Positions 27,712 through 51,952 of a stretch of 64,000 bases of DNA are shown one piece after another. Every line of letters starts with the position of its first letter. Position 1 is the stretch's first letter. Source of the stretch: Chloroflexota bacterium (GTDB lineage: Bacteria; Chloroflexota; UBA6077; FW602-bin22; JACPRP01). The notes beneath the pieces were generated by a model. It saw only the letters and a list, made by a program, of their open reading frames with translations, did no database searches and was not told the DNA's origin. The translations under genes were made by a program, and so were the position numbers. The stretch is taken from assembly GCA_023480885.1 (NCBI GenBank), contig JAMCWX010000066.1, positions 37,467 to 101,466 on the forward strand. The letters are read 5' to 3'.

Positions 27712-27724
27712 CTTCGTGAACCTC

Positions 27725-28768: not shown

Positions 28769-28800
28769 TTCCCTTTACCTCCTCTGCTCAGCGATCAACC

Positions 28801-33657: not shown

Positions 33658-33777
33658 TTGTGCGTCGTACAATATAGGTACCGCGAGCTTACCAGAGATG
33701 GAAACTCAACAGATTACGAATGCAAGGTACGATCCATACAGTGCGCACGAAGTAGTGGAGCAAAGAGGTGAGTGACA

Positions 33778-35677: not shown

Positions 35678-35864
35678 CAACTCCCTTTTCCCCCTTATCT
35701 TCGAATAGCCTTTGAGTTCCGAAACATCGCTAGCCAAACCGATTCGGCCTTTTCCAAACACTAATGATGCAATGCAGCGTAGTCTGAGTTTGCTGTTGCT
35801 TCAGCACCTCCTTTCCGGTAAGAAGCGATGCCGATAGCCGCTCACTGGCCCAAGTACGAGCGCC

Positions 35865-37314: not shown

Positions 37315-37320
37315 GGCTAA

Positions 37321-38388
37321 TCAACTCTCCTTCACGCCTAGCAGATCTGTCCCGCTTGCCGGCGCATTTGCAGACTGGCTTTGCTCCGGCAACCTTCCCA
37401 ATTGACCCATGGGTTTAGCCACGTGCTGCTCGATGTCCTTCGCGGTCGTCCTACCCGTAACCAGATCCAGCAAGCGAGACAGAAAGGCGCTGATGCCACC
37501 AGGCATGAACAGAAGCACGACTAGCAAGGCCGCGCCCATCAGAATGAACGATAGATCCTGGAGCTCACCGAGCACATAAGGCACCGTGACCATGAAGATG
37601 CCGCCAATAACTGAGCCAAGCACAGAGGCCAGGCCGCCGATTACGATCATAGTCAAGAAGTCGATTGATAACCACATGTTGAAGTTCTCCGGTGCCAGGA
37701 AGCGGACCAGACTGGCGAAGAGAGCGCCGGCAATGCCTGTATAGAAGGCAGACATGGTGAAGGCAAGCGTTTTATACCTCGCCAGGCTTATACCCATGGC
37801 CTGAGCGGCGATCTCGCTATCGCGCAAGGCTATGAACGCCCGACCAACGCTGGAGCGAAGAATGCTAAGGGCCAGCAACGACATCACGATAGTCACAGCT
37901 AAGACGAAGTAGAAGTAAGAGCGATCATCCAGGACAAAACCTGCCAGAGAAGGTTTAGGTACGCTCAATCCTGCCCGACCGCCCGACACGGAATCCATAT
38001 TTTGCAGTATCTGCTCCACTGCAAGGCCGAATCCCAGAGTTGCTGTCGAAAGGTATGCCCCTGACAGACGCAAGGCTGGAATACCCAGGAGGAAGCCGAC
38101 GATGCCGCTGGCGAGCCCTGCCACCAGCATTCCAACCCAGAAAGGAGCGCCCAGATCGGTAATCAGCCTGGCCGAGGTGTAGGCGCCGATAGCCAGAAAG
38201 CCGGCGTGCCCCACGGACATCTGCCCCGTGTACCCAGTGAGAATGTTTATTCCTAACGCGACGATCACGTATATACAGATGAGCGATAGTAGATAGGTGA
38301 TGAAAGTCGTAGTGAAACTAGGAAGGAAAACCAGCACAACAAGGAGCGGTACCAACCAGAGAAGATGGTGTAGCCGAAAAGCCGTCAT
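37321..38388 (-). CDS. livM: LivM-type ABC permease
   Basis: Polytopic, with the family pattern GQMSVGHAGFLAIGAY. It has a C-terminal cytoplasmic tail. Confidence 0.85.
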   Translation of the reverse strand: MTAFRLHHLLWLVPLLVVLVFLPSFTTTFITYLLSLICIYVIVALGINILTGYTGQMSVGHAGFLAIGAYTSARLITDLGAPFWVGMLVAGLASGIVGFLLGIPALRLSGAYLSTATLGFGLAVEQILQNMDSVSGGRAGLSVPKPSLAGFVLDDRSYFYFVLAVTIVMSLLALSILRSSVGRAFIALRDSEIAAQAMGISLARYKTLAFTMSAFYTGIAGALFASLVRFLAPENFNMWLSIDFLTMIVIGGLASVLGSVIGGIFMVTVPYVLGELQDLSFILMGAALLVVLLFMPGGISAFLSRLLDLVTGRTTAKDIEQHVAKPMGQLGRLPEQSQSANAPASGTDLLGVKES

Positions 38389-38402
38389 TATCCCTCTTCC
38401 TT

Positions 38403-39272
38403 TTACACCTTAGCCTGGATCCGACGCCCGAACACCCCGGTTGGGCGAACCGCAAGCACTACCACGATGAGCACGAACGCAAAGGTCGTTCGCAGCTCGG
38501 TGGAAATGAACTCTCCCGCCAGGTTCTCGGCCACACCAATGAAAAGCCCTCCCACAATGGCACCAGGAAGGCTGCCGAAGCCACCGAGCACTGCCGCAGC
38601 GTAAGCCTTTACAAGAACGTCTGACATCATATTGGGACTCAAATAGACGAGAGGAGCAAGAAGGATTCCTGCAACCGCAGCCAAGGCGCCGCTCACTCCC
38701 CAGGTAAGTGCGAAGATCCTGCTAACGTTCACGCCCATCAACCGAGCCGCCATCCTATCTTCCGCCGTGGCCCGCATTGCCAGCCCGGCCGTCGTGTAAC
38801 GGAAGAACACGAACAGCACCGCGCTTATTATGAAACCGAAGGCGAGTATCCAGAGATGTCCCTGACCTATGACCACTCCGTTGACCGAAACAGGATCGGA
38901 GGGGAGAGGCGATGGAAACGCTTTGGTATCGCGACCCCAGATGGCTCCTGCAACACCGTGCAAGATCATATAGACACCCAAGGTAGCAATCATCAGGCTG
39001 AGCATAGAGGCATTCTTCATCGGTCTAATGGTTAGCCTATCCACCACCACCGCCAGAATCGCAGTAGTAACAATAGCCACAAGCGTTGCCAGCACGAAAG
39101 GGACTTTGAACTGGGAAATGGCCATAAGCGCTACGAAGGCCGCGACCATACCAAAGTCTCCCTGAGCGAAATTGACCACGTCCGTGTTCTTGAAGATCAG
39201 AACGAGGCCGAGGGCCGTAAGGGCGTAGAGGCTGCCGGCAGCCAATCCGCTTACCATCTGTTGAGCAATCAC
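38403..39272 (-). CDS. livH: LivH-type ABC permease
   Basis: Starting at GTG 39272 (5 nt after AGGAGG) gives IAQQMVSGLAAGSLYAL, the canonical LivH N-terminus. The track ORF extends to 39371. Confidence 0.85.
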   Translation of the reverse strand: MIAQQMVSGLAAGSLYALTALGLVLIFKNTDVVNFAQGDFGMVAAFVALMAISQFKVPFVLATLVAIVTTAILAVVVDRLTIRPMKNASMLSLMIATLGVYMILHGVAGAIWGRDTKAFPSPLPSDPVSVNGVVIGQGHLWILAFGFIISAVLFVFFRYTTAGLAMRATAEDRMAARLMGVNVSRIFALTWGVSGALAAVAGILLAPLVYLSPNMMSDVLVKAYAAAVLGGFGSLPGAIVGGLFIGVAENLAGEFISTELRTTFAFVLIVVVLAVRPTGVFGRRIQAKV

Positions 39273-39364
39273 TGGCACCTCCTGAATCAAGTTCGCCTCA
39301 AGCATCGAAAGACCACTGTTGCTGACAGGATGTCGGAGTCCGCGCAGACTCCCCAATATACTAT

Positions 39365-39468
39365 TGTACAAGCAGGTGTTATATCAGTGCATACTATATC
39401 GACACGGGTTATATCGACAAGCGTTGATGTTGCGTCAATATAGCACAGGTTTTGTGCTGTGTCAACAG
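39365..39468. repeat. copy 1 of a duplicated ~104-bp intergenic module
   Basis: About 75% identical to 39542-39644. It contains ATATCGA twice (39396-39402 and 39411-39417), plus TTGATGT, TATAGCACAGGTT and GTCAACAG. Confidence 0.8.
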
Positions 39469-39541
39469 CTTTTGTCGCTTGAGTCTAAAACGACTTGCGC
39501 CCAAAACACCAGACCAATTTCACGCGAGCTGAGAAAAGGTG

Positions 39542-39644
39542 TATACAAGTGGAGGTTGTATCATTGTATACTATATCGACGGCTGTTGTATCGACAGCAA
39601 TTGATGTCGGGCAGTATAGCACAGGTTCTCGCTGCAGTCAACAG
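39542..39644. repeat. copy 2 of the duplicated ~104-bp intergenic module
   Basis: Offset 177 bp from copy 1. ATATCGA lies at 39573-39579 and GTATCGA at 39588-39594, with the same internal landmarks. Confidence 0.8.
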
Positions 39645-39729
39645 GTGTGCTCACTTGTTATGGATCGCCTGTGTGCTGGCAGGTGCACCGTTTCATCCCT
39701 CAAGGCCGAAAATAACAATGGAAAATGTA

Positions 39730-39758
39730 TTGACATCGATTGATTTATATGCTAGTAT
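39730..39758 (+). promoter_or_regulatory. sigma70-like promoter of the methyltransferase/molybdoenzyme/arsDA operon
   Basis: TTGACA (39730-39735), 17 nt, TAGTAT (39753-39758), about 95 nt before GTG 39852. Confidence 0.5.
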
Positions 39759-39851
39759 AGGGCTCGCTTGGGCTATCCCCCACATTCGAGGCAGTGGGCT
39801 CACATCCGCTCAAATGCCTCGTCAAGGTCTTTGAAAGGAAGGTCCCTAACT

Positions 39852-40907
39852 GTGAAGCCAAGAGATAGGCTACTTATGGCGATCAAACATCAGCAGCCCG
39901 ACCTGGTGCCCTTGTTCATCCGCTACGTCGGCGCTGTGAGCAGCAAACTCTCCCGCATTCACGGCATCGCCGGACGCGACCTAGAAATCAAGCTTGGCAA
40001 CGACGGCGTGATCGTCCAGATCGGCATCAACGCCGAGTACAGCCATAAAGTGGTGCCCGATGGCGAGCGCTGGACTAGCGAATGGGGCGTTACCTACGAG
40101 GGTATGCGTGGCATCAGCCAGCCCGTTGACCATCCACTTAAGGAGCCAGATGTCTCGGGCTATATATGGCCCGATCCTCATAAGCCCGAGAGGATGGCCG
40201 AGATCAAACAGGCGATGGCCAGGTATCATAGCGACTACGCGGTGATGGTCGACCTCTCCTGCACCTTTCTGGAGGCAGGCTACGCGCACCTCCGAGGCAT
40301 GGAGAAGTTCATGATGGATCTTCACCTCAGTCGGGACTTCGCCTGCCAGGTGCTGGATGGCCTCAACACCTATTACACTGCCCTCGGCGTACACGCCATT
40401 GAGCAGGGAATCGACATCATTCGAATCGGCGACGACATCGCTGGACAGAATGGTATGCTCGTGCCCCCGAAGTTGTGGCGCGAACTGGTAAAGCCGCGAA
40501 TGGAATCGATGATCCACGCCTTCAGGAAAGCCAACCCAAACATCATCGTCAAATATCACTCGTGTGGCGATTTCAGCGCTATCATCCCCGATCTCATCGA
40601 CCTGGGCGTCGACTTCATCGGGACGATGCAGCCCTGCGGCCAACAGGTGGATATGGCAGCCATTAAGGCGAAATACGGCGACAAGCTGGCCTTTCTGGGC
40701 GGCCTGGACACACAGCAGCTTCTGCCAAACGGCTCGCCCGAAGAGGTGCGGGAGGCTGTGAAAGACGTCCTGCGTAGCTACGCGCCAGGCGGCGGCTACG
40801 TTTTTATGCCAGGGCACTACGTCAACTTGGACGTGCCGCTAGAAAACGTCTGGGCGCTGCTCTCGGCGGTGCACGATTACCGCAGGTATCCTTTGAACTT
40901 CGATTAG
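39852..40907 (+). CDS. UroD/MtaA-family (MT2-type) methyltransferase 1
   Basis: Uroporphyrinogen-decarboxylase-fold pattern with a Zn-type HSCG...QPCG motif and C-terminal APGGGYVFMPGH. GTG 39852 lies about 10 nt after AAGGAAGG. The track ORF starts at 39768. Confidence 0.8.
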   Translation: MKPRDRLLMAIKHQQPDLVPLFIRYVGAVSSKLSRIHGIAGRDLEIKLGNDGVIVQIGINAEYSHKVVPDGERWTSEWGVTYEGMRGISQPVDHPLKEPDVSGYIWPDPHKPERMAEIKQAMARYHSDYAVMVDLSCTFLEAGYAHLRGMEKFMMDLHLSRDFACQVLDGLNTYYTALGVHAIEQGIDIIRIGDDIAGQNGMLVPPKLWRELVKPRMESMIHAFRKANPNIIVKYHSCGDFSAIIPDLIDLGVDFIGTMQPCGQQVDMAAIKAKYGDKLAFLGGLDTQQLLPNGSPEEVREAVKDVLRSYAPGGGYVFMPGHYVNLDVPLENVWALLSAVHDYRRYPLNFD

Positions 40908-40942
40908 CCAGCTGAGGCAAGAAGAAGCTTGAGGTGTTCTTC

Positions 40943-41632
40943 ATGGAGATATCTACACAGGACGGTGAACGCTCAATGGCTGAAATAATGAAATCAGGAA
41001 CCCTGGAGAAGCTAGCGCAGGCCGTGCTAGAGGGGGCAGCGGAAGACGCCAAGAGACTTACAGAGAAAGCCCTGTCAGAGAGCTTACCCCCAAACACGGT
41101 TCTCGTCGAAGGGCTCTCGGCAGGAATGACAGTAGTGGGCGGGTTGTTCCGCCGCAACGAGATGTTCATCCCAGAGGTGCTGCTGTCAGCCCGAGCGATG
41201 CGTTTTGGTATGGAAGTGCTTCGGCCTCTACTGGCAGAGACGGGGGCCAAGCCTGTGGGCAAGGTGATCCTGGGAACGGTAGCCGGCGACCTGCACGACA
41301 TCGGCAAGGATATCGTGCACATGATGCTGGAAGGAGCCGGCTTTCAAGTGTTCAACCTGGGCATCAACGTGGAAGCTCATAAGTTCATCGAGGCCTTCCA
41401 AGAACACAAGGCACCAGTCATTGCGCTTTCCGCCCTCCTGAGCACCACTATGCCGCAGCAGAAGGCGGTAATCGAGGCATTCGAGAAGGCTGGCTTGCGC
41501 GGCGAGGTAAAGATACTGATCGGTGGGGCGCCTGTCACTCAAGAATACGCCGATAAGATAGGGGCAGATGGTTTCGCTCCTGATGCCGCTTCGGCAGTAC
41601 TGAAAGCAAAGGAACTCCTTGGAATCAGCTAA
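40943..41632 (+). CDS. corrinoid (B12-binding) protein 1
   Basis: N-terminal helical cap, then a B12-binding Rossmann domain with DxHxxG (GDLHDIGKDIV) and SALLSTT. ATG 40976 is an alternative start. Confidence 0.85.
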   Translation: MEISTQDGERSMAEIMKSGTLEKLAQAVLEGAAEDAKRLTEKALSESLPPNTVLVEGLSAGMTVVGGLFRRNEMFIPEVLLSARAMRFGMEVLRPLLAETGAKPVGKVILGTVAGDLHDIGKDIVHMMLEGAGFQVFNLGINVEAHKFIEAFQEHKAPVIALSALLSTTMPQQKAVIEAFEKAGLRGEVKILIGGAPVTQEYADKIGADGFAPDAASAVLKAKELLGIS

Positions 41633-41659
41633 TCTCCTACTTAATTGCGAGGTGTCGTT

Positions 41660-42829
41660 GTGACAAAAGCGATGACTTCACGGCAGCGCGTGCAAGTGGC
41701 GCTCGACCATCGCGAACCTGACAGGGTGCCGCTTGGCATTTGGTCGACGCTCGACGGCTACAAGAGACTACGATCCTATCTCGGTCTCCCAATCGCTGAA
41801 CAATATCCCGTCGGCTCCACTACATGGTCACGTGACGTTCCCGTCGAGTTCGACGTTATCGATAAGCTCGGCCTGGACGTCATCAGGGTCTGTGGACGAT
41901 GCCCCGGCGGCAAATCCCTGGAGAAAACTCCCGATGGCCTGTGGATCGACGAGTGGAGCGTCAAGAGAAAGCTCGTCGAGCATCCTTCGGGAACGTATCT
42001 CGAAATCGTCAATCCGCCCTTGAAGGACGCCACTGTAGATGACCTGGCGGATTATCCCTGGCCAGACCCATCAGACCCGGCAGTGTGGGAAGGGCTTGAA
42101 GAGAGAGTGAAACGCCTCTACGACGAGACCGACCTGGCCATCCTGGCTCAATTCGGCAGAGGTGGTATCTTCGAGCAGGCCAAGTACCTCCGCGGCTACG
42201 ACACCATTATGTACGATATGGCCGCAAATCCAGAATTTGTTATTGCCCTCTTCGACAAGCTGACGGAGGTCGAGATGAAGTTCAACGAGATCGGCATCGG
42301 TCTCATCGGCCAGTACATCAACATCCTTCGCCTTTCGCCCGAGGACCTGGCCACTGGCGACAGCACCTTCGTCTCGCCAAAAATGTTCGAGCGCATGCTC
42401 AGACCCTATTACAAGCGCAGCTTCTCCCTCGCCAGAAAACTCTTGAAAGAGAAGAATCCTCAGGCGAGGCTGCAGTTCCACAGCTGCGGCGCCGTTTATC
42501 CGTTGCTGAACGCACTCATCGAGGACGGAATGGAAATCTTCGATCCGTTGCAGCCGAGAGTGGCTGAAGGCTCTAGGCCTGCCAGGCTCAAGCAAGCCTT
42601 CGGAGACCGCATCGCTTTCTGGGGAGGAATTGACGTTCAGGTCACGCTTCCACGCGGCACCAAAGAGGAGATCGCCAAGGAGGTCAGGACGAGGATCGCG
42701 GAAGTGGCGCCAGGCGGAGGTTATATCCTCAGCTCCTCACACCGCATCCAACCAGATATCCCTCCTGAGAACGTCGTCGCGATGTATGAAGCAGCCAAAG
42801 AACACGGGGAATACCCGATAAAAGCATAG
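41660..42829 (+). CDS. UroD/MtaA-family methyltransferase 2
   Basis: Same fold as methyltransferase 1 (FHSCGAVYPLL, APGGGYILSSSH), but without the second Cys of the QPCG position. GTG 41660 lies 5 nt after GAGGTG. Confidence 0.8.
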   Translation: MTKAMTSRQRVQVALDHREPDRVPLGIWSTLDGYKRLRSYLGLPIAEQYPVGSTTWSRDVPVEFDVIDKLGLDVIRVCGRCPGGKSLEKTPDGLWIDEWSVKRKLVEHPSGTYLEIVNPPLKDATVDDLADYPWPDPSDPAVWEGLEERVKRLYDETDLAILAQFGRGGIFEQAKYLRGYDTIMYDMAANPEFVIALFDKLTEVEMKFNEIGIGLIGQYINILRLSPEDLATGDSTFVSPKMFERMLRPYYKRSFSLARKLLKEKNPQARLQFHSCGAVYPLLNALIEDGMEIFDPLQPRVAEGSRPARLKQAFGDRIAFWGGIDVQVTLPRGTKEEIAKEVRTRIAEVAPGGGYILSSSHRIQPDIPPENVVAMYEAAKEHGEYPIKA

Positions 42830-42844
42830 TGCGGGGAGATATGC

Positions 42845-43495
42845 ATGGAAATCTTTGAGCAAATCAGCAATGCCGTCATCGAGGGCGAGTTCGGCGAAAT
42901 CACAGACCTTGTGCAGAGTGCGCTCGATCAGGGAATCGGAGCCAACGAAGTCATCCGAGAGGGCCTGTCGAAGGGAATGACTGAGGTGGGACGCCGCTTC
43001 CGCGAAGGCGAATATTTTATGCCTGAGGTCCTGGTTTCCGCCAAGACCATGAACACCGCGCTGTCGATACTGAAACCACTTCTCGTCGGCGATACCACCC
43101 AAGAGAACGTGGGAACCTTTCTTATCGGCACCGTCAAAGGCGACGTGCACGACATTGGCAAGAATATGGTATCCATGATGATGGAAGGCGCTGGCTTTAG
43201 AGTGATCGATATTGGCGTCGACGTAAAGCCAGAGGTCTTCGTGAAAGAGATAACGGAAAAGCAGCCCGATGTCGTTGGACTTTCAGCCTTGCTCTCCACG
43301 ACGATGATCTCGCAGAAAGAGACCATCGAGGCGCTCAAAGAGGCGGGCGTACGAGATAGAGTGATCGTTCTTGTTGGAGGAGCTCCTGTCGACCAAAACT
43401 GGGCCAACACTATTGGGGCAGACGGATATGCTCCCAATGCCAGCGTAGCGGTTGAGAAGGCGAAGGAGCTACTGCAGCGGCGACCCCACAGCTAG
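42845..43495 (+). CDS. corrinoid (B12-binding) protein 2
   Basis: DxHxxG as GDVHDIGKNMV, SALLSTTM and GGAPV. Paralogous to corrinoid protein 1. Confidence 0.85.
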   Translation: MEIFEQISNAVIEGEFGEITDLVQSALDQGIGANEVIREGLSKGMTEVGRRFREGEYFMPEVLVSAKTMNTALSILKPLLVGDTTQENVGTFLIGTVKGDVHDIGKNMVSMMMEGAGFRVIDIGVDVKPEVFVKEITEKQPDVVGLSALLSTTMISQKETIEALKEAGVRDRVIVLVGGAPVDQNWANTIGADGYAPNASVAVEKAKELLQRRPHS

Positions 43496-43521
43496 CTCGA
43501 TCTAGATGAAGGGAGAGACAC

Positions 43522-44070
43522 ATGACCCGCTTAGCGCTAGTAATAGATTTGAACAAGTGCATTCTATGCCACGCTTGCACCGTATCCTGCAAGATTCATC
43601 ACGACCTGCCGCTCGGGCAGTTCTGGAACGAGGTCTTCACTGTCGGGCCAAGCGGAGAGTTCCCGCACACGTCTCTGTATGGATTCCCCAAAGCATGTAT
43701 GCAATGCGACAAGCCCGCCTGTGTTTCCGTTTGTCCAGCAAGGGCCACGGAAAAGGACAAGGAAACTGGGGTGGTCAAAATCTACGAGGACAAGTGCGTT
43801 GGTTGCCGCTCCTGCATCGTGGCCTGCCCTTACGGTGCGCGTGCCTTCGACGAGACTAAAGGAACGACGTTCAAGTGCGAACTCTGCCCAGAGAGGCGCG
43901 AGCAAGGCAAGCAACCCATCTGCGTCGAGACCTGTGTCGGAGGAGCGCGAGTCTTTGGCGACATCGACGACCCAAACAGCGAAGCCTACAAGATCGTTCA
44001 CGAAAAACACGCGGTCAGGTATCTGGAGCATCTGGGCACAGAGCCCTGCACCAGCTACGTGCCAGCCTAG
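43522..44070 (+). CDS. four-cluster 4Fe-4S subunit (DmsB/PsrB-like), no signal peptide
   Basis: LVIDLNKCILCHACTVSCK, CMQCDKPACVSVCP, CVGCRSCIVACP and CELC...CVETC. Confidence 0.9.
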   Translation: MTRLALVIDLNKCILCHACTVSCKIHHDLPLGQFWNEVFTVGPSGEFPHTSLYGFPKACMQCDKPACVSVCPARATEKDKETGVVKIYEDKCVGCRSCIVACPYGARAFDETKGTTFKCELCPERREQGKQPICVETCVGGARVFGDIDDPNSEAYKIVHEKHAVRYLEHLGTEPCTSYVPA

Positions 44071-44120
44071 CTTCAGGACAACGTTCTCTGATTGGCCAGA
44101 GACGAAACAGGGGATGAAAC

Positions 44121-44981
44121 ATGAAAAGACGAAGAGCCAACACGTGGGACATTAGGATCGCCTCTTATCTTTTCCTGGCGGGCGTTGGCGCCGGAGCATT
44201 CGGGTCGCTGGCACTGCTCGATTACCTCGAAGGGGGCAAGCTGCACCTTCCCACCAGCATCACTGCCCTGCTCTCCCTCCTGCTCATAGGCATCGGAACC
44301 TTGCTGCTAGTATCGGACCTGGGAAAGCCACTGCGCTTCTGGCGAGTGCTGTTGAACCCGATGAGTTCTATGCTTTCGGTTGGCGCCTGGATACTGATCT
44401 TGTTCGCCCTCACGATGCTGGGCTACCTGGGCTTCGGGGGACCAGTGTTCAGCCTTGGTGGTGTGGTATTCGCGATAGCAACAGCAGGATACACAGGAAT
44501 CCTGCTGGGAGTAATAAAGGCTAGGCCATTCTGGAATAGTCCCGCGCTTCCACTGCTGTTCGTGACATCGGCCTTTTCCACTGGCATAGCGGTTGTGACG
44601 GTGCTCGCCTCAGCGCTGGTGATCTACGGCCTGGACGCGCAGAGCTCGCACCTGCTCTCGCAGGTCGATCTATGTCTGATCGTCGCCGAGCTAGCAATCA
44701 TTGGTTTGTACTTGACCATCATGAACAATTCCGCCGCGCCTGCGGCCAGGTCGGTTGAGATGTTGCTGAGAGGGAAGCAAGCCAACACATTCTGGGGCGG
44801 GCTGATCTTCGCCGGTCTGGTGGTACCGCTCGTTCTCGCCCTCGCCAGTTCCGAAGGGGTAACGAACCTGCTCTCCTCGATTCTGGTGCTGATAGGAGGG
44901 TTCTCTCTCAGATACACATTCCTGGCGGCAGGAACTCGTGCACTCCTGCCAGGGGAGCCCGCCGAGGCAAGTTACCTGTGA
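44121..44981 (+). CDS. NrfD/DmsC-type membrane anchor subunit
   Basis: 286-aa, about 8-TM protein with IASYLFLAGVGAGAF and SDLGKPLRFWRVL motifs. Confidence 0.8.
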   Translation: MKRRRANTWDIRIASYLFLAGVGAGAFGSLALLDYLEGGKLHLPTSITALLSLLLIGIGTLLLVSDLGKPLRFWRVLLNPMSSMLSVGAWILILFALTMLGYLGFGGPVFSLGGVVFAIATAGYTGILLGVIKARPFWNSPALPLLFVTSAFSTGIAVVTVLASALVIYGLDAQSSHLLSQVDLCLIVAELAIIGLYLTIMNNSAAPAARSVEMLLRGKQANTFWGGLIFAGLVVPLVLALASSEGVTNLLSSILVLIGGFSLRYTFLAAGTRALLPGEPAEASYL

Positions 44982-45006
44982 CGTGGTGGATAGAAGGGAG
45001 GCCTTT

Positions 45007-47220
45007 ATGATCGTAGCGACTGGGAACGAAACCCAAGCAAGCAGCATAACCTCTGCTCAATTCAATACGAATACGTCGCAGACGCGCGTTTACATAGAGG
45101 GTGACGAGAAGAAGGGCGGCTACATCGCCAGCCATTGCCTGCAATGCGTATCGAACTGCGGCCTCCGAGCTTTCGTTAAGGATGGGAAAGTACGTTACCT
45201 CGAAGGGAACCCCCTCGATCCTAACAGCAGGGGCCGAATGTGCGCCAAAGGGCAGGCTGGTGTCCAGCAGATTTACGATCCTGATCGCGTGAAGAATCCC
45301 CTGGAAAGGGTTGGTGAGAGGGGAAGCGGCAAGTGGCGTGACATCTCATGGGACGAAGCCATGCAGAAGATATCCAGCAGGCTGCGGAGGCTGCGAGACA
45401 GCGGACATCCTGAACAGTTCGTGTTCTACAGCGGCCGCAACATGCAGGCCGGTTACACTACTCGCTTCACCAATGCCTTCGGCAGTCCCAACCATTTCAA
45501 CCACGACAGCCTTTGCGCATCAGGACGCCAGATGGCCACGTTACTCACTTACGGAGACACCTGGCCTCAGATGGACATCGAGAACGCCCGCTACGTTCTG
45601 CTGTTCGGCTTCAGCGCCTTCGACGCGGGGATTTGCTTCGTTCCTGCCGCCCAGAGGCTGGTAAACGCTTTGAGCAAAGGTGCGAAGCTCGTCGTCGTGG
45701 ACCCCAGGCTGAGCAAGACGGCCGCCAAGGCCAGCGAATGGATTTCCATCGCGCCAGGGACCGATGCAGCCCTGGCTATGGGCATAATGAACGTCATAGT
45801 CTCCGAGGGCCTCTACGACCGCGAATTCGTGGAACATTGGACCGTCGGGTTCGATGATTTCGTCGAGAAGGAGTTGAAGCGCTTCACACCAGAGTACGCA
45901 TCGAGCATTTGCCGCGTGCCAGCAGAGAAAATCGGGGAGCTAGCGTGGGACTTCGCCACAACGAGGCCGGCCGTTGCGGATGCGATGCGAGGAGTGTCAG
46001 CTCATACGAATGGCACCGTGTCCATACGCGCAGTGATGGCGCTAAACGTCTTGCTTGGAAATATCGATGACATCGGTGGAATGAACCTGGACTTCGGCTG
46101 GTGGAACATCGGCCTGGGCGCTGTGGATCCCGTCCCACCGGCTCCCAAAGAGACGCGAAGGCTGGACCGTCTGGGCACTTCGCAGTACCCGCTGGCCGCC
46201 GTGCCTATCCAGCAGCAAATCCTCCCCTCGATCGCCGAGCGAGATCCGTACCCGGCCGACACCGTGATGCTGTATCACTCGAGTCCAGCCTACGCCATGC
46301 CTGACCCGAAGAAACAGATGAACATACTCAAGAATCCCGACAAAGTTCCATTCATCATCTCTGTCGATCCCTTCATGGGAGAGTCGACGACGTTCGCCGA
46401 TATCGTCCTGCCAGAAGGCACCTACCTGGAGAGATATGATGCTGTTTCCTGGCCATACAGCCTGCAATTTACCCCATACGTTTTCCTTCGCAAACCCGTG
46501 GTTCCCCCGCAACTCGAATCGAGAATGGTGAAAGACATCTTGAGAGAGCTAGCTCATCGCATAGGCGGGGGCATGGAACAATACTTCGCCGACGACGCCG
46601 TAGCTTATCATCGAAAAGAGATCGAGGGAATCACAAACGGGCCGTCGTGGGATGAGATAGTTAAGAATGGCGTGTGGGTGGCCCCTGCGAAGCGCGAAAC
46701 CCAAAGGTTCAGAAAGAACGGCTTCTTTACCCCCTCAGGCAAGATCGAGCTCTACAGCAAGCGGATGGATGATGCTGGATTCCCCCCTTTCCCAACCTAT
46801 GTTCCGGTAGCTACCCATGACGCCGAACGCCGGCAGCAATACCCATTCTGCTTGATAACCTACAAGGTGGCGATGCACAACCAGTCGCGCACAGCTAACG
46901 TGCCGTTCCTGGTCGAGGTTATGGACCGTAATTATGCCGAGATAAACCCGAAGTCGGCCGCGAGCCTTGGAATTCGCGACGGCGACGAAGTGTACGTCGA
47001 ATCCGAAATCGGACGCATCGAAGGGGTTGCACGCTTGACCAATGAGATTAGACAGGATACTATAGCGATATCCCATCACTTTGGCCATTGGGAGTACGGT
47101 AGGGTTGCGAAGGGCCGAGGCATTAGCCCGAATCCAATCGTGGCCTGCAACGACGATGGCATCGGCGCCCCGGCGGCCTTCAACAGCACCCTCGTCAGGG
47201 TCTATAAGAAGTTAAAGTAG
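45007..47220 (+). CDS. molybdopterin oxidoreductase catalytic subunit without a Tat signal (substrate unknown)
   Basis: ATG 45007 lies 5 nt after GAAGGGAGG. It has a polar N-terminus, Fe-S motif C-x2-C-x3-C-x27-C (CLQCVSNC...CAKG), candidate Mo-ligand Cys in NHDSLCASG, and 737 aa. Confidence 0.9.
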   Translation: MIVATGNETQASSITSAQFNTNTSQTRVYIEGDEKKGGYIASHCLQCVSNCGLRAFVKDGKVRYLEGNPLDPNSRGRMCAKGQAGVQQIYDPDRVKNPLERVGERGSGKWRDISWDEAMQKISSRLRRLRDSGHPEQFVFYSGRNMQAGYTTRFTNAFGSPNHFNHDSLCASGRQMATLLTYGDTWPQMDIENARYVLLFGFSAFDAGICFVPAAQRLVNALSKGAKLVVVDPRLSKTAAKASEWISIAPGTDAALAMGIMNVIVSEGLYDREFVEHWTVGFDDFVEKELKRFTPEYASSICRVPAEKIGELAWDFATTRPAVADAMRGVSAHTNGTVSIRAVMALNVLLGNIDDIGGMNLDFGWWNIGLGAVDPVPPAPKETRRLDRLGTSQYPLAAVPIQQQILPSIAERDPYPADTVMLYHSSPAYAMPDPKKQMNILKNPDKVPFIISVDPFMGESTTFADIVLPEGTYLERYDAVSWPYSLQFTPYVFLRKPVVPPQLESRMVKDILRELAHRIGGGMEQYFADDAVAYHRKEIEGITNGPSWDEIVKNGVWVAPAKRETQRFRKNGFFTPSGKIELYSKRMDDAGFPPFPTYVPVATHDAERRQQYPFCLITYKVAMHNQSRTANVPFLVEVMDRNYAEINPKSAASLGIRDGDEVYVESEIGRIEGVARLTNEIRQDTIAISHHFGHWEYGRVAKGRGISPNPIVACNDDGIGAPAAFNSTLVRVYKKLK

Positions 47221-47259
47221 CCATAAAAGCACAGCAAAGCCAAGAGGAGACAGCCAGTA

Positions 47260-48132
47260 ATGTTGCGAACCACTATATTCAGCGAGAAGCGAGAAGTGAC
47301 GATAGCACGAGACCTGCCGACCATCCTAATCGGCGAGAGGATCAACCCAACTGGCAAGAGGAAGCTTGCCACAGCGCTTATGGAAGGAAACTGGGATTAT
47401 GTGAAAGAGATGGCCATCAAGCAGGTTGAGGCTGGAGCCCACGTGCTGGACGTCAACGTTGGCGTCGGCGGCATCGACGAAGCGGAGTATCTGGTAGCTG
47501 CCATCAAAGCCGTGTCTGAGGCAGTCGACGTGCCTCTCTGCATTGACTCTTCGGATCCAAAGGCCCTGGCCGCTGCCCTCGGGTCTTATAAGGGGAAGGC
47601 GCTGGTGAATTCTGTCACAGGAGAGGAAGGCAGCCTCGAAACAGTGCTTCCCCTGGTAAAGCAGTACGGAGCAGCCGTTATCGCGCTATGCATGGACGAG
47701 CATGGATGTGCCGTGGATGTCGAGGGCCGCACAGCTGTCGCTAGAAAGATTATCGACAGGGCGGACCGACTGGGCATCCCTCGTGAAGATATCATAGTAG
47801 ACTGCCTTACCATGACAGTTGGAGCCGATTCCAAGGCTGCGCTGGTGACCCTCGAAGCAACAAGCCGTGTTGTCGCGGAGTTTGACGTGAACATAACGTC
47901 GGGCGCCAGCAATATCTCCCACGGGCTTCCGGTGCGCGAGGTGATAAACGCCGCTTTCCTGGCGATGATGATTGCTGCCGGTTTGACGGCGCCCATCGTC
48001 GACCCCACTGCCCCTGGGATAACTCAAGCGATTCTTGCAGCCGACTTAGTGATGGGCCGTGATGACTACGCCGCTCGCTATATTCGCCATTATCGCAAAA
48101 TGATGAAGGCGGCGGCTGCTCGCGCGAATTGA
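47260..48132 (+). CDS. pterin-binding methyltransferase (methyl-THF:corrinoid, MeTr/MtrH-like)
   Basis: Pterin-binding TIM-barrel pattern (ILIGERINPTG, HVLDVNVG, PLCIDSS, LVNSVTGEE, SNISHGLP). Confidence 0.8.
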   Translation: MLRTTIFSEKREVTIARDLPTILIGERINPTGKRKLATALMEGNWDYVKEMAIKQVEAGAHVLDVNVGVGGIDEAEYLVAAIKAVSEAVDVPLCIDSSDPKALAAALGSYKGKALVNSVTGEEGSLETVLPLVKQYGAAVIALCMDEHGCAVDVEGRTAVARKIIDRADRLGIPREDIIVDCLTMTVGADSKAALVTLEATSRVVAEFDVNITSGASNISHGLPVREVINAAFLAMMIAAGLTAPIVDPTAPGITQAILAADLVMGRDDYAARYIRHYRKMMKAAAARAN

Positions 48133-48155
48133 GGTAATTTGTCAGGGAGGACAAC

Positions 48156-48506
48156 ATGACGAAGGACGAAGTCAAGGTTGAGGTATTCGAGAAAGTGTCG
48201 TGCTGTGGCGGTGGCGCCTGCGGCCCCAATGCCGATCCTGAGGCAGTCGCCTTCACGGAAGCAACTTGGAGCCTTCGAAGAAGGGGCATCCCCGTTCATC
48301 TCTACTCTTTGCCCGCAGATGTCAAAGTCTTCGCCGAACACCCGCTGATCAAGAGGCTGATTTCCGAGAGCAAAGGTCCGCTGCTGCTTCCGATCACGAT
48401 AGTGAACAACATTGTCGTCAAAGTCGGCTCCAATCCTACTCTCGCAGAACTCGAAGACGCCCTCGGAATGAACAATCAGCCGGTCCAGGAAGGAACTTCC
48501 GCATGA
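48156..48506 (+). CDS. arsD: arsenic metallochaperone ArsD
   Basis: CC-x4-C site (SCCGGGACGP) and overall collinearity with ArsD (FTEATWSLRRRGIPVHLYSL...LLLPITIVNN). Confidence 0.85.
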   Translation: MTKDEVKVEVFEKVSCCGGGACGPNADPEAVAFTEATWSLRRRGIPVHLYSLPADVKVFAEHPLIKRLISESKGPLLLPITIVNNIVVKVGSNPTLAELEDALGMNNQPVQEGTSA

Positions 48507-49390
48507 GCACAAACTTTGCCTTTGTTTCAGGTAAAGGCGGAGTTGGCAAGACCTCTATTGCCTGTGCCATAGCTTTGTATCACGCCGAACACGGCGAGTA
48601 CACGCTCATTGTCACGACCGACCCCGCTCCCAACCTTTCCGACGTCTTCGAGCAGCCCATAGGGCACAACATCACCGCGATCAACAGCGTCGAGCGTCTC
48701 TCCGCGATTGAGATCGACCCAGACATCACCGCCGAAGAGTATCGGGAGCGCTATCTGGCCCCGCTGCGCGAGATTCTTCCACCAGAGATGGTGGCAGTAG
48801 TTGCCGAGCAACTGGCCTCTCCCTGCACCTCGGAAGTAGCCTCCTTTGACAAGTTTGCCGATTTCTTCGAGGCGTCCGGGGTCGACTTTATCGTTTTCGA
48901 CACGGCCCCTACTGGCCATACAGTTCGCCTCCTGGAACTGCCCGCAGATTGGACGCGGCATATTGATCGCCTCACTGAAGGTGGACATTCGTGCGCTGGG
49001 GCAGTTGCTAATATTAAGGAGTCAAGGGCCAAATATGATCGAGCAGTCGCGGCGTTGAGGAACCCCGAGCAGACGTCGTTCATATTCGTCGTGCAGCCGG
49101 AGGCGACGCCCATTGCTGAGACAGAGCGCACGCTCTCACAACTGGAGCGGGTAGGAGTGACGGCGAAAGAGTTGATTATCAACGGCATCATACCATCGGA
49201 ACAGTGCGAAGTACCCTTCTTCCGGAAGCGGCGCGAAATGCAAGACCACTACATCGAAGAGATACACCGTCGCATCCCGCTGCCAAGCAAGTCCCTTTAC
49301 TTTTTCGATGAAGAGGTCAAGGGTCTGGAAATGATACGTAAGGTTGGAAGGACACTTAATCAGAATGGACAGCTTAGTACGTCCCAATAG
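48503..49390 (+). CDS. arsA: arsenite-stimulated ATPase ArsA, N-terminal (A1) half as a separate ORF
   Basis: The ATG overlaps the arsD stop (ATGA). It has SGKGGVGKTS, DTAPTGHT, and the A1 As-binding Cys equivalents (SPCTSEV, GHSCAGA). It ends at TAG 49388-49390. Confidence 0.85.
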   Translation: MSTNFAFVSGKGGVGKTSIACAIALYHAEHGEYTLIVTTDPAPNLSDVFEQPIGHNITAINSVERLSAIEIDPDITAEEYRERYLAPLREILPPEMVAVVAEQLASPCTSEVASFDKFADFFEASGVDFIVFDTAPTGHTVRLLELPADWTRHIDRLTEGGHSCAGAVANIKESRAKYDRAVAALRNPEQTSFIFVVQPEATPIAETERTLSQLERVGVTAKELIINGIIPSEQCEVPFFRKRREMQDHYIEEIHRRIPLPSKSLYFFDEEVKGLEMIRKVGRTLNQNGQLSTSQ

Positions 49391-50324
49391 GAAAGACGGC
49401 GTGGTGGATATCATCAAGCCAGGGCCTAAGGGTGATAGGATGGTATTCTTCGCTGGCAAGGGTGGTGTCGGCAAAACTTCGACGGCGTGTGCGACTGCCG
49501 TCTGGCTGTCCCGCGCCGGGTACCGCACTCTCCTCTTGACTACCGATCCTGCTTCCCACCTCAGCGACGTATTCGAGCAGCCGGTTACAGATAAGGTGCG
49601 GGAACTCGGTGGCTTGCCTGGATTATTCGCGGCGCGGATTGATCCGAAGCGCGCGGCGGAAGACTACAAGCAGCGCATACTTGACGACATGAAGGGTAAA
49701 CACTCCGCGGATGTGCTGGCCGTCGTCGAAGAGGAACTCGACGCACCGTGCACCGAGGAAATGGCGACCTTCGACCTCTTCGTCTCTTATGCCAGTTCCA
49801 CCGAGTACGACGTGATGGTCTTCGACACCGCGCCAACGGGACACACCCTCAGGCTGCTCCAGCTTCCCATCGAATGGAGCAAGCAGATTCAAGTCAAGGT
49901 ATACGCGTCGGTAGACAGTCAGCAAGCAGGGGAGACGACTAAGGCGAAGTTTGGTCAGGTGATAGATCGCATGCGAGATGTTAGACGCACGACGTTTTCC
50001 TTTATAATGTATCCTGAGGCCACTCCCGTCGTCGAAGCGTATCGGGCGGCTCGTGACATCGAGACGTTAGGTATCAGCGTAGGATTCGTCATAGCAAATC
50101 AAGTGCTTCCCGAAGAGCATTGCACCAACGCCTATTTCAAGAAGCGCTTCGCGATGCAGCAAAAGTACCTTCAGGAAATGAAAGACCGCTTCGGCGTGCC
50201 GATTCTGCAAATGCCCCTGCTGGAGCACGACGTCAGAGGTATTAGCACCTTGATCAGAATAGGAGACGTGCTCTTCGGCCAACCAGTCAGCCCACACTCA
50301 AGGGCGACATCAGCACCATTGTGA
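49365..50324 (+). CDS. arsA: ArsA C-terminal (A2) half as a separate ORF
   Basis: AGKGGVGKTS, DTAPTGHT and the A2 Cys equivalent (APCTEEM). It is in a different frame from A1. ATG 49365 overlaps A1 by 26 nt. ATG 49440 (after AAGGGTGA) is an alternative start. Confidence 0.8.
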   Translation: MDSLVRPNRKDGVVDIIKPGPKGDRMVFFAGKGGVGKTSTACATAVWLSRAGYRTLLLTTDPASHLSDVFEQPVTDKVRELGGLPGLFAARIDPKRAAEDYKQRILDDMKGKHSADVLAVVEEELDAPCTEEMATFDLFVSYASSTEYDVMVFDTAPTGHTLRLLQLPIEWSKQIQVKVYASVDSQQAGETTKAKFGQVIDRMRDVRRTTFSFIMYPEATPVVEAYRAARDIETLGISVGFVIANQVLPEEHCTNAYFKKRFAMQQKYLQEMKDRFGVPILQMPLLEHDVRGISTLIRIGDVLFGQPVSPHSRATSAPL

Positions 50325-50462: not shown

Positions 50463-50491
50463 TTGAATACTGCTTCGTCTTCTTGTATACT
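50463..50491 (+). promoter_or_regulatory. promoter candidate for the multihaem cytochrome gene
   Basis: TTGAAT (50463-50468), 17 nt, TATACT (50486-50491). Confidence 0.45.
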
Positions 50492-50569: not shown

Positions 50570-51952
50570 ATGGATGACCACTCGGTGTCTTCGGTTGACC
50601 AGCGGCGCATAATCCTCATTTGCGTTGCGCTTGCGATCGCACTGCTTATCATCGTGGCCTTCCTCGGTGGTTGCACCGACCAGAAGGCAACGCCCACGTC
50701 CAAGCCAGCAGCAGAGGTCGCTCCTGCCAGCGCAACGCGCGTTGCCCAACCGACAGCAGCTCAGGGCGCGGCTTCGAAGACAGGACAGGCCGAAACCGCG
50801 AAGCCCCAGGCCACAGATGCGTCCAAGCCAGCCGCTACCCCACAGGCTAAGGAAACGCCAGCAGCAGTCGTTCAGGAGAAAGGGGCCGGGCCAAACATTC
50901 CCCACTCCCCCAAAGGACGTGACGACTGTCTAGCCTGCCACTCCAGACTGGTGGTGTGGCCCGTGCCTGCAAGCCACGAAGGCCGCGGCAATGAGACATG
51001 CCAGGCTTGCCACAAGCCTTTGGCGGGCGGCCCACCAAAGATCGCCCATACACTGGACGGGAAGTCGGACTGTGTAGCGTGCCACGGCGAAGGCAAGCTA
51101 GTCAAGCTGCCGCAGAGCCACGCGAAAAGGACGTCTTCCAACGTGTGCGTTGTTTGCCACCAGCAGACTACCACGCCCACTACTATCGCGCATACGTTAG
51201 AAGGCAAAACCAACTGCACGCAGTGCCACGGCGATGGCAAGATAGTGGCGTTGCCAGCGAGCCACGCCGGCAGAACCGAGCAGATGTGCCAGGTCTGCCA
51301 CACGCAGACGACGACACCCACAAAGATCGCGCACACTCTGGAGGGCAAGACGAATTGCACCGGTTGTCACGGCGACGGCAAACTGGTGAAGCTGCCGCAG
51401 AGCCACGCCGGCAGAACCGAGCAGATGTGCACGCTCTGTCACACGCAAACGACTCAACCCAACACGATCGCACATACGTTGGAAGGAATGACAAACTGCA
51501 CATCGTGCCACGCCGATGGCAAGCTAGTGCCGTTGCCAGCAAGCCACGCCGGCAGAACGGAGCAGATGTGCCAGATTTGTCACGCGCAGACGATGCAGCC
51601 GCCCACCATCGCACACACGTTGGAAGGCAAAGTCAACTGCACGCAGTGCCACGGCACTGGGAAGCTAGTGGCGCTACCGGCTTCTCACGCCAAGAGGACG
51701 GAGCAAATGTGCGCCGTGTGTCACACGAAGACTATGGATCCGCCAAGGGCACCGCACACCACATCTGACAAGCCTTCGTGTATCGCGTGCCACGACGGCA
51801 AGAAGGTGAAGGCGGCGCCAGCGAATACCCACCAGGGTAGGACCGACCAGATGTGCGCTATCTGCCACGCGCCTGTCTCAGGAGGCGTTCCAAAGATACC
51901 GCACACGCTAGAGGGCCGCTCTGACTGCACGATGTGCCACACGAAGCAGTAG
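50570..51952 (+). CDS. lipoprotein-anchored multihaem c-type cytochrome (15 CxxCH) built of tandem modules
   Basis: ATG 50570 lies 5 nt after GGAGG. It has a signal/TM segment ending in lipobox FLGGC, an Ala/Pro/Thr/Gln/Lys-rich linker of about 75 aa, then 15 CxxCH motifs. Confidence 0.85.
   Translation: MDDHSVSSVDQRRIILICVALAIALLIIVAFLGGCTDQKATPTSKPAAEVAPASATRVAQPTAAQGAASKTGQAETAKPQATDASKPAATPQAKETPAAVVQEKGAGPNIPHSPKGRDDCLACHSRLVVWPVPASHEGRGNETCQACHKPLAGGPPKIAHTLDGKSDCVACHGEGKLVKLPQSHAKRTSSNVCVVCHQQTTTPTTIAHTLEGKTNCTQCHGDGKIVALPASHAGRTEQMCQVCHTQTTTPTKIAHTLEGKTNCTGCHGDGKLVKLPQSHAGRTEQMCTLCHTQTTQPNTIAHTLEGMTNCTSCHADGKLVPLPASHAGRTEQMCQICHAQTMQPPTIAHTLEGKVNCTQCHGTGKLVALPASHAKRTEQMCAVCHTKTMDPPRAPHTTSDKPSCIACHDGKKVKAAPANTHQGRTDQMCAICHAPVSGGVPKIPHTLEGRSDCTMCHTKQ
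50897..51949 (+). repeat. intragenic tandem repeat, 141-147-bp period (47-49-aa di-haem module, 7.5 copies)
   Basis: Module starts at 50897, 51041, 51185, 51326, 51467, 51608, 51749 and 51896. Consensus: IAHTLEGKTNCTxCHGDGKLVxLPxSHAGRTEQMCxxCHTQTxxPxx. Confidence 0.9.

Follow-up and report, generated by a model that had tools for sequence, protein, structure and literature searches.

A corrinoid methyltransferase, molybdoenzyme and arsDA locus of an uncultured Chloroflexota bacterium as a candidate for oxygen-independent methylarsenic metabolism

Within a 64,000-nucleotide stretch of contig JAMCWX010000066.1 (hereafter the window), which derives from a metagenome-assembled genome (MAG) of an uncultured Chloroflexota bacterium, eleven same-strand genes (39852-50324) join a corrinoid-dependent methyl-transfer system, a membrane-anchored molybdoenzyme and the arsenite-handling proteins ArsD and ArsA. 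Together with an arsR gene and a divergent ABC importer, this operon forms a locus of ~16.5 kb. We find that the feature is real, conserved and arsenic-linked and that it consists of known modules in a previously undescribed combination, which makes it the best current candidate for a bacterial oxygen-free route that removes or adds arsenic methyl groups. Judged from gene content, the chances appear about even that the locus encodes a horizontally spread methylated-arsenic pathway, most likely one of anaerobic demethylation, the set having passed among Chloroflexota, Bacillota, Nitrospirota and Proteobacteria.

Results

Eleven genes and three modules

Domains were assigned to the open reading frames (ORFs) of the operon by Pfam and NCBIfam profile scans with curated cut-offs. 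Identical metagenome contigs in public databases carry calls for these same eleven genes, and proteins of the operon region are deposited as MCL5265945-9. In order, the genes are as follows.

39852-40907, plus strand: MT1a, UroD/MtaA-fold methyltransferase, 351 aa; URO-D 1e-32
40943-41632, plus strand: CPa, corrinoid protein, 229 aa; B12-binding_2 and B12-binding, GDLHDIG
41660-42829, plus strand: MT1b, second UroD/MtaA-fold methyltransferase, 389 aa; URO-D 1e-21
42845-43495, plus strand: CPb, corrinoid protein, 216 aa; GDVHDIG
43522-44070, plus strand: FeS electron-transfer subunit, 182 aa; Fer4_11; 16 Cys, four [4Fe-4S] cluster motifs
44121-44981, plus strand: NrfD-type quinone-interacting membrane anchor, 286 aa; NrfD domain
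45007-47220, plus strand: catalytic subunit with molybdenum (Mo) bis(pyranopterin guanine dinucleotide) (Mo-bisPGD), 737 aa; Molybdop_Fe4S4, Molybdopterin and Molydop_binding; Psr/Phs-like superfamily
47260-48132, plus strand: MeTr, methyl-tetrahydrofolate:corrinoid methyltransferase, 290 aa; Pterin_bind; NF005719 297 bits
48156-48506, plus strand: ArsD, arsenite metallochaperone, 116 aa; CC-x4-C
48503-49390, plus strand: ArsA half 1 (N-terminal type), 295 aa; ArsA_ATPase
49365-50324, plus strand: ArsA half 2 (C-terminal type), 319 aa; ArsA_ATPase

The successive junctions measure +35, +27, +15, +26, +50, +25, +39, +23, -4 and -26 nt. The best promoter-like match upstream on the plus strand is TTGACA-17-TAGTAT at 39730-39758, and the only terminator-like plus-strand matches within the operon are two weak 5-bp stems; terminator-like matches total 9 against a mean of 9.4 in shuffled sequences, i.e. 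there is no excess. We infer that the eleven genes are co-transcribed. The gene callers begin MT1a at 39876 (343 aa), and alignment with its orthologs favours the GTG at 39852. An Rfam scan of 35-55 kb at E <= 1 returned no riboswitch or other RNA family, those for cobalamin and molybdenum cofactor (Moco) included.

An initial annotation of this DNA, made from the letters alone, had described these eleven genes with their domains, junctions of -26 to +50 nt, the TTGACA-17-TAGTAT promoter sequence, the GTG start of MT1a, the two DxHxxG motifs, a 4x[4Fe-4S] subunit, a MeTr-type pterin-binding methyltransferase, an ArsD with CC-x4-C whose stop overlaps the ArsA start, and ArsA halves that keep the three As(III)-binding Cys positions. 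All of this held up against the profiles, gene calls, coordinates, direct readings and alignments reported here.

Methyltransferases and corrinoid proteins

MT1a and MT1b are 28% identical to one another, and neither could be assigned to a described family. Against the MtaA/CmuA family (TIGR01463, cut-off 235) they score 80 and 48 bits, and against the MtaA equivalog (cut-off 400) 63 and 31, respectively. A search of the PDB with the MT1b sequence gave only a spurious repeat protein, and it was a fold search that yielded the relation to UroD and MtaA: for the predicted MT1b structure (predicted local distance difference test, pLDDT, 89.7) these two are the best structural matches, with template-modelling (TM) scores of 0.65-0.73. 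The MtaA-type His-x-Cys...Cys zinc site was likewise rejected, since both proteins keep the H-S-C element but have an invariant His at the position of the distal Cys. Among the MT1a orthologs (55-65% identical) H-S-C is invariant, with His where MtaA has its zinc-ligand Cys; the invariant residues of MT1b are H274, C276, H361 and R362. Fusions of an MT1a-like protein with a corrinoid-binding domain occur naturally (582-595 aa, 47-49% identical to MT1a; L091 8218-9975, proteins P0302-P0308).

Both corrinoid proteins score above their Pfam cut-offs and carry DxHxxG as read directly in the sequence, with scores against TIGR02370 (189 and 207.5) just under the cut-off of 215. MeTr passes NF005719 (cut-off 259) and matches PF00809 at 103 bits. 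A Promineifilaceae counterpart of MeTr is truncated by an insertion sequence (IS) element carrying a DDE_Tnp_IS240 transposase (L024 10522-11780).

No reductive activase of the RamA or RACo type was found among the window ORFs scanned with Pfam, as the initial annotation had stated for RamA in the operon. Recurrent in the close ortholog clusters are DUF1638, FlpD-like and small Fer2 and Rieske proteins (L020 695-1408, L072 8369-9307, L024 1145-1681, L093 1284-1900), which are candidates for corrinoid re-activation.

A molybdoenzyme outside the known clades

The catalytic subunit keeps a Cys as Mo ligand, its SLC aligning to the SLC of PsrA. Its best profile is PhsA at 448 bits, short of the cut-off of 694, and its best structure is PsrA (2vpw, 313 bits); membership in DmsA and TtrA was rejected on scores under the curated cut-offs. 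The ArrA profile (NF041714, cut-off 1600) gave 255 bits, mainly over the N-terminal third, and membership in ArrA was rejected. Ser190 and Lys198, which we take to be arsenate-binding residues of ArrA, are Asp and Gln here. Beyond a homolog at 100% identity come three proteins at 53-55%, each encoded in a cluster that also has orthologs of MT1a, CPa, MT1b, CPb, FeS and NrfD, and then, at <=40%, ordinary Psr/Phs-like enzymes. In a crude neighbour-joining distance tree of 132 relatives, built without bootstrap, the class of the window enzyme, which we call type N, forms a long-branch clade of cluster-linked proteins only. By tree and profiles the subunit is thus placed outside every clade of known function, in a small clade of its own. 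The initial annotation had named a position inside a clade of known non-arsenic function as telling against an arsenic role, and the subunit does not have such a position.

Related clusters contain a second class, type H, which is ~35% identical to type N and in which a NarI/QmoC-like anchor replaces NrfD; against the ArrA profile it scores 209 bits. The two types are not sisters, their common ancestor spanning 130 of the 132 sequences, most of them with a twin-arginine translocation (Tat) motif. A single origin was therefore rejected, as the tree separates the two, and this supports convergent recruitment. Both types stand in one cluster with MT1a in L092 (3704-13284) and L073 (1-12862), and this co-occurrence suggests distinct catalytic steps for the two types and not interchangeable roles.

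None of the type N or type H sequences examined has a Tat motif, compared with 99 of the 132 tree sequences. The window subunit lacks RRxF, and its orthologs have only ~18 residues ahead of the FeS Cys motif, while the other Psr-like molybdoenzyme of the window, serving as positive control, shows SRRQFL. Because neither type carries a Tat signal, both would face the cytoplasm, where the methyltransferases are. The FeS subunit has no signal peptide; its orthologs are 55-57% identical and those of the NrfD subunit 46%. The window holds a second FeS-NrfD-Mo set in the same unusual order (25324-29529, minus strand, with 30133-32324; 795-aa Mo subunit), which lies beside genes for a histidine kinase with its response regulator and for a binding protein of the phosphonate type (32311-33243).

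ArsD and ArsA

ArsD matches PF06953 at 72 bits (cut-off 27), falls under the cut-off of its NCBIfam equivalog (67.8 against 90), and its CCx4C aligns to Cys12/13/18 of the solved structures 3ktb and 3mwh. Its stop overlaps the arsA start as ATGA, read directly in the sequence. ArsA is encoded by two overlapping genes, not as two halves of one polypeptide. Both products pass TIGR00345 (238 and 231 bits against 135) and neither passes the full-length ArsA model; in alignment with R773 ArsA (1f48), the Cys residues of half 1 fall on C113 and C172 and that of half 2 on C422. With CCx4C kept in ArsD and the equivalents of C113, C172 and C422 kept in the ArsA halves, we assign these proteins as true arsenite proteins and not Get3-like ATPases. 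The eleven ORFs and flanking genes, scanned with Pfam, contain no S-adenosylmethionine (SAM) methyltransferase or glyoxalase-type C-As lyase domain of the ArsM or ArsI kind.

Conservation of the core and recurrence of ars genes

Three other lineages, including two Bacillota MAGs, have orthologs of the core (MT1a, CPa, MT1b, CPb, FeS, NrfD and Mo) that are 45-64% identical, in DNA of 43-63% G+C. Orthologs of MT1a and MT1b, with type H enzymes, extend to Chloroflexota (Promineifilaceae), Nitrospirota, Rhodospirillales and other Alphaproteobacteria, and Gammaproteobacteria. The junction of the three modules is thus not peculiar to one genome, in line with the initial annotation.

Genuine ars genes stand beside the methyltransferase or Mo genes in ~8 lineages, in varying order, position and sequence, as listed here by cluster.

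Window: arsR, arsD, arsA1, arsA2
L013: arsA-arsR-arsD after Mo
L018: arsR-D-A-C after MeTr
L024: arsR, in the cluster whose MeTr gene is cut by the IS element
L027: arsD at the contig end
L031: Mo-FeS-arsD-arsA with a divergent arsR
L078: MT1a-CP-MFS-MeTr-CobW-arsR-arsC-arsD-Usp-arsA, without a Mo enzyme
L090: Acr3-like gene and arsA, 6 kb away
L093: Mo-FeS-arsC with an ArsR-like gene

CCx4C is present in every ArsD protein of these loci, and CVC or CNC in their ArsR proteins. Based on this recurrence, arsDA is not a chance neighbour of the methyltransferase/Mo core, and we judge the repeated juxtaposition, by our own estimate of the rarity of arsD, to be far beyond chance. As to gene order in related genomes, a point raised by the initial annotation, the core recurs and the ars arrangement varies. 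The window arsD and arsA genes are only 30-43% identical to the L013 copies (ArsD 30%) compared with 53-64% for the core. From this identity gap we conclude that the ars genes were acquired separately, and from their differing order, position and sequence that they were recruited repeatedly.

The modules combine in a pattern: the Mo enzyme accompanies MT1b or MT1b-like genes, and MT1a can occur alone, without Mo, beside ars in L078. The RACo-bearing clusters of a more distant methyltransferase subfamily (L022, L028-30) hold no ars genes. A gene of L011 considered as 'ArsP' was rejected as arsenic evidence, being an ArsP_1-family permease whose best NCBIfam matches, SaoE and SO_0444, are both under cut-off.

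In Arenicellales a module of type H Mo, FeS, an MT1b-like protein, a corrinoid protein and a NarI-like anchor (L033-L062) recurs in all 24 of the loci compared and in ~30 loci in total, without ars genes, MeTr or MT1a. It lies near pst/phoU, and one genome also has genes for a dimethylglycine-dehydrogenase-like protein and a Rieske oxygenase close by.

Carriers found within other clusters, depending on lineage, are MIP channels, AmiS/UreI channels and MFS carriers; the MIP channel gene of a Bacillota (Soudan mine) cluster (L011 5191-5850) is called as ORFs of 119 and 90 aa and may be a frameshifted pseudogene. A homocysteine S-methyltransferase-domain protein adjoins Mo-FeS in L093 and L094, and FolD/FchA, MTHFR and FTHFS genes lie nearby in three lineages.

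The divergent importer, ArsR and the control region

Five minus-strand genes that diverge from the operon encode an ABC importer of the HAAT/LIV type (34373-39272), whose distal end converges with an arsR gene.

33772-34227, plus strand: ArsR-family repressor, 151 aa; HTH_5 1.7e-15; ELCVCEL As(III)-binding motif
34373-35761, minus strand: periplasmic substrate-binding protein; Peripla_BP_6 7e-67; N-terminal start uncertain
35865-36551 and 36538-37314, minus strand: two importer ABC ATPases; ABC_tran and BCA_ABC_TP_C
37321-38388 and 38403-39272 (public gene call), minus strand: two importer permeases; BPD_transp_2
39273-39851: divergent control region, ~580 nt between importer and operon

The importer is orthologous in seven lineages at 45-65% identity overall. 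Orthologs of the substrate-binding protein (50-56% identical) stand beside methyltransferase genes in L011/L025, L027, L031, L032 and L072, those of the ATPases (49-65%) occur in five other loci, and those of the permeases are 45-54% identical; L094 has an importer of the L031 type, and in L027 the importer lies mid-cluster on the same strand as the cluster genes. The window ArsR is 43% identical to that of cluster L018.

The control region contains two tandem direct-repeat units of ~85 nt (39367-39451 and 39544-39627; 75-94% identical, 177 nt spacing), or ~100 nt each if the minus-strand promoter-like site that follows each unit, pointing at the importer, is included. TATATCGAC is present three times in the region and half-sites of the TATATCGAC type lie within each repeat unit; the degenerate pattern TATMTCGAC matches the window at 5 sites where 0.5 would be expected, and 3 of these sites lie in the control region. 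The tandem repeat may represent an operator/promoter of the importer that has been duplicated.

Other genes in the vicinity

About 245 nt after arsA2 lies a gene for a multihaem cytochrome c (~460 aa, 50570-51952) with a promoter-like site of its own (50463-50491) and without a counterpart in the orthologous clusters of other lineages. A PocR-GAF-PAS sensor protein is encoded 7.5 kb downstream of the operon (57886-60558), and in a Nitrospirota MAG a PocR-AraC regulator (L091 304-1665) adjoins an MT1a/corrinoid cluster. Early tetrapyrrole genes (8241-9782 and 11860-13149), encoding a uroporphyrinogen-III methylase/HemD fusion and a HemL-like aminotransferase, are placed 27-32 kb upstream of the B12-dependent operon.

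Discussion

A proposed demethylation pathway

If the methyl group moves here as in the known corrinoid methyltransferases, all of which, to our knowledge, deliver CH3+ to Co(I), the donor would be pentavalent arsenic and the product trivalent. Taking two methyls off dimethylarsinate would then call for exactly one two-electron oxidation between the transfers, and the two methyltransferase/corrinoid protein pairs and one quinone-linked molybdoenzyme match two transfers and one oxidation. The initial annotation had instead let the Mo enzyme reduce the pentavalent species first, so that two methyls would leave trivalent arsenic; this order is unbalanced if CH3+ goes to Co(I). It had also overlooked the divergent importer, the adjoining ArsR and the cytoplasm-facing orientation of the Mo enzyme, and its remark that no efflux permease is present, while true of the operon, was incomplete, as the conserved importer next door favours catabolic demethylation.

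We propose that the HAAT-type importer would take up a small methylated pentavalent arsenical, with dimethylarsinate (DMAs(V)), methylarsonate, trimethylarsine oxide or a dimethylarsinoyl compound as candidates, and that MIP, AmiS/UreI or MFS carriers would serve elsewhere in place of the ABC importer. In a reversal of Challenger-type oxidative methylation, MT1b, as a zinc-type UroD-fold enzyme, would then hand one CH3+ from As(V) to its corrinoid partner in the Co(I) state, and the trivalent methylarsenical so formed would be reoxidised to the pentavalent state by the Mo/4x[4Fe-4S]/NrfD enzyme, with its electrons entering the quinone pool. MT1a and its corrinoid protein would strip the last methyl to give As(III), while MeTr would transfer the methyls of both methyl-corrinoids onto tetrahydrofolate (THF). 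ArsD would capture the As(III) and pass it to the split ArsA, ArsR would sense As(III), and the pump would be encoded elsewhere. The net reaction would be DMAs(V) + 2 THF + Q -> As(III) + 2 CH3-THF + QH2, and the running direction of the Mo enzyme is its least certain step.

Several features of the related clusters accord with this scheme. MT1a beside ars without Mo, as in L078, is expected if MT1a yields As(III) from monomethyl As(V); the variety of carriers speaks for an imported substrate that is small, polar and largely uncharged; and the importer, the homocysteine methyltransferase-domain protein and the THF one-carbon (C1) genes point to methyl harvest and not to methylation of arsenite.

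A number of observations weigh against demethylation. Ars genes are absent from the available sequence of L015, L020, L073, L091 and all Arenicellales loci; the initial annotation had regarded the absence of arsDA from otherwise conserved copies as damaging to its proposal, and this is the case in some lineages only (L015, L020, L073). L031 and L093, which have ars with MT1b-like genes and no MT1a in view, are partial exceptions to the module pattern. Counted per locus, ars genes are near 7 of the 16 close homologs and 1 of the 35 distant ones (p = 6e-4), but with lineages collapsed the comparison becomes 7/16 versus 1/4 and is not significant (p = 0.6), so that the arsenic case rests on the repeated, differently arranged juxtaposition. 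The close ortholog clusters contain no RamA or RACo except for a weak RACo-like match (38%) in L075, 3 kb from MT1a, a clear RACo being found only in the distant L022 type. Comparison of the binding protein with solved relatives was uninformative as to its ligand. Reports on paddy-soil cultures agree with a reductase-first order (PMC10579292), at variance with an oxidase between the two transfers, and we estimate that in anaerobes with menaquinone only, passing electrons from a trivalent methylarsenical to quinones is probably endergonic. Methylarsenic is, moreover, scarce in the environment for a growth substrate.

Alternative substrates and directions

An unlikely alternative is that the substrate is no arsenical at all: the Mo enzyme would reduce or oxidise the heteroatom of another small methylated compound, such as dimethyl sulfoxide (DMSO), dimethyl sulfide (DMS), methanethiol, a methylated amine oxide or a methylated form of selenium. 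The methyltransferases would harvest its methyls, and ars genes would be present since the carriers or enzymes also admit or activate arsenic. MtsA and MtpA are UroD-family methyltransferases that act on such compounds. The best profile and best structure of the Mo subunit both belong to sulfur enzymes, the ~30 Arenicellales loci, without ars, include betaine/dimethylglycine-type genes nearby, and MIP, AmiS and HAAT carriers suit any small neutral solute. The known or proposed substrates of UroD-family corrinoid methyltransferases are, moreover, methyl-sulfur, methyl-selenium and methoxy compounds (PMC10418091). Against this, ars recurs with four carrier types, with both Mo types, with MT1a alone and with Mo-FeS alone, so the link follows the enzymes and not one transporter; the RACo-bearing clusters of other corrinoid methyltransferases lack ars; and an ArsR with ELCVC flanks the window importer.

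That the same machinery runs in reverse, as a corrinoid- and folate-dependent, SAM-independent alternative to ArsM, we regard as improbable. Methyl-THF would load the corrinoid proteins via MeTr, MT1a would methylate ArsD-delivered As(III) to pentavalent monomethyl arsenic (MAs(V)), the Mo enzyme would reduce this with quinol to the trivalent form (MAs(III)), and MT1b would add the second methyl. The gene count, two transfers and one redox step, fits equally well; UroD-fold enzymes of the MtaA type, the closest structures, normally move methyl from corrinoid to a soft nucleophile; ArsC and ArsD beside MT1a in L078 could supply As(III); and quinol-driven reduction is, by our own estimate, thermodynamically easy for a menaquinone organism. 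Methylcobalamin has also long been known to methylate arsenic, both in extracts and non-enzymatically, from work attributed to McBride and Wolfe (1971) and Zakharyan and Aposhian (1999). However, a conserved binding-protein-dependent importer has no role where the As(III) is internal, the homocysteine methyltransferase-domain protein and THF C1-oxidation genes of related clusters speak for methyl harvest, and the described bacterial sets of methyltransferase, corrinoid protein and pterin methyltransferase run from substrate to THF (PMC10418091).

Mere adjacency of a methylotrophy operon and an ars operon used independently has very little in its favour: co-transcription is only deduced and the identity gap to L013 indicates separate acquisition, but the MeTr-arsD gap is 23 nt, nothing above two weak plus-strand hairpin matches lies inside the operon, and separate acquisition in ~8 lineages at varied positions runs directly counter to the expectation from chance.

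Significance of a possible oxygen-independent route

Anaerobic demethylation of methylarsenic governs arsenic speciation in rice paddies, groundwater and sediments and is tied to straighthead disease of rice. It is a real process whose enzymes are unknown: the known demethylase, ArsI, depends on O2, corrinoid methyltransferases are suspected anaerobically, so far only those of methanogens, and bacteria are possible agents (PMC10579292; bioRxiv 10.64898/2026.08.27.747368). We see a roughly balanced case for the locus being a new branch of the arsenic cycle, in which O2-independent cleavage or formation of C-As bonds would be joined to a cytoplasm-facing, quinone-linked Mo class acting between III and V methylarsenicals, and which would supply the missing bacterial demethylation set. 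If so, that set would be defined as importer, two methyltransferases, redox enzyme and arsenite capture, each part being directly testable. Field surveys would gain marker genes from it, and it would hold the first molybdoenzyme acting on methylarsenicals and the first corrinoid methyl-transfer pathway wired to the quinone pool. Should the substrate not be arsenic, the widely conserved pairing of methyltransferase, corrinoid protein and cytoplasmic Mo enzyme, the ~30 Arenicellales genomes included, would still represent an undescribed pathway.

Comparison with known systems

The initial annotation knew of no described system that combines the three modules, and the literature we searched likewise contains no description of corrinoid-molybdopterin-ars clusters, nor of a gene for a DMAs reductase. 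Each module taken singly has recognisable relatives. Gene clusters for the O-demethylases Odm, Vdm and Mtv and for the glycine-betaine system MtgBCA likewise unite a substrate methyltransferase with a corrinoid protein bearing DxHxxG and with a pterin-binding methyl-THF methyltransferase, and methyltransferase I of the O-demethylases has the UroD fold of MT1a and MT1b. They differ in that the present locus has two methyltransferase/corrinoid protein pairs under every named family cut-off and no RamA/RACo, and coupling to a membrane Mo enzyme and ars is undescribed for them. The methylthiol systems of methanogens (MtsA/MtsB, MtaA, MtbA) and, in bacteria, the mlp clusters described by Kountz and Balskus (PMC10418091) combine UroD-fold and corrinoid proteins for methyl compounds of soft atoms. 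Of the UroD-methyltransferase clusters in the literature, those of the mlp type come nearest to the present one. An H-x-C zinc motif is common to these enzymes and to MT1a and MT1b, with the third ligand here His and not Cys. Membership in the mlp group was rejected, as mlp clusters carry Ram/RACE and no THF methyltransferase, and PMC10418091 mentions neither molybdenum nor arsenic.

For the Mo enzyme, SoeABC offers the same subunits (Mo-bisPGD, FeS and NrfD-type anchor) with a Tat-less, cytoplasm-facing catalytic subunit, a likeness of architecture, and is a precedent for this orientation with an NrfD anchor (PMC6620896). As a sulfite:quinone oxidoreductase it oxidises a lone-pair oxyanion, and in Thioalkalivibrio arsenite induces a Tat-less Soe-like paralogue along with B12 synthesis (PMC6620896), which may be a lead. 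In contrast to SoeABC, the gene order here is FeS-NrfD-Mo, and the association with methyltransferases is new. PsrABC and PhsABC have the same three subunits and the Cys Mo ligand and give the best profile and structure matches, but the present Mo subunit lies under the PhsA cut-off, has no Tat signal and forms a separate long-branch clade. ArrAB(C) and ArxAB(C) belong to the same superfamily and are arsenic-linked, whereas the subunit described here is far under the ArrA cut-off and Tat-less.

With arsRDABC the locus has ArsR, ArsD and ArsA with the As(III) cysteines in common, but its operon lacks an ArsB/Acr3 pump and its ArsA is split into two genes. ArsM and ArsI, by methylation and demethylation, respectively, reach an outcome like the one proposed here, a changed methylation state of arsenic; they do so with a SAM methyltransferase or an O2-dependent C-As lyase, neither of which is found in the present set, whose proposed chemistry would be corrinoid-based and anoxic.

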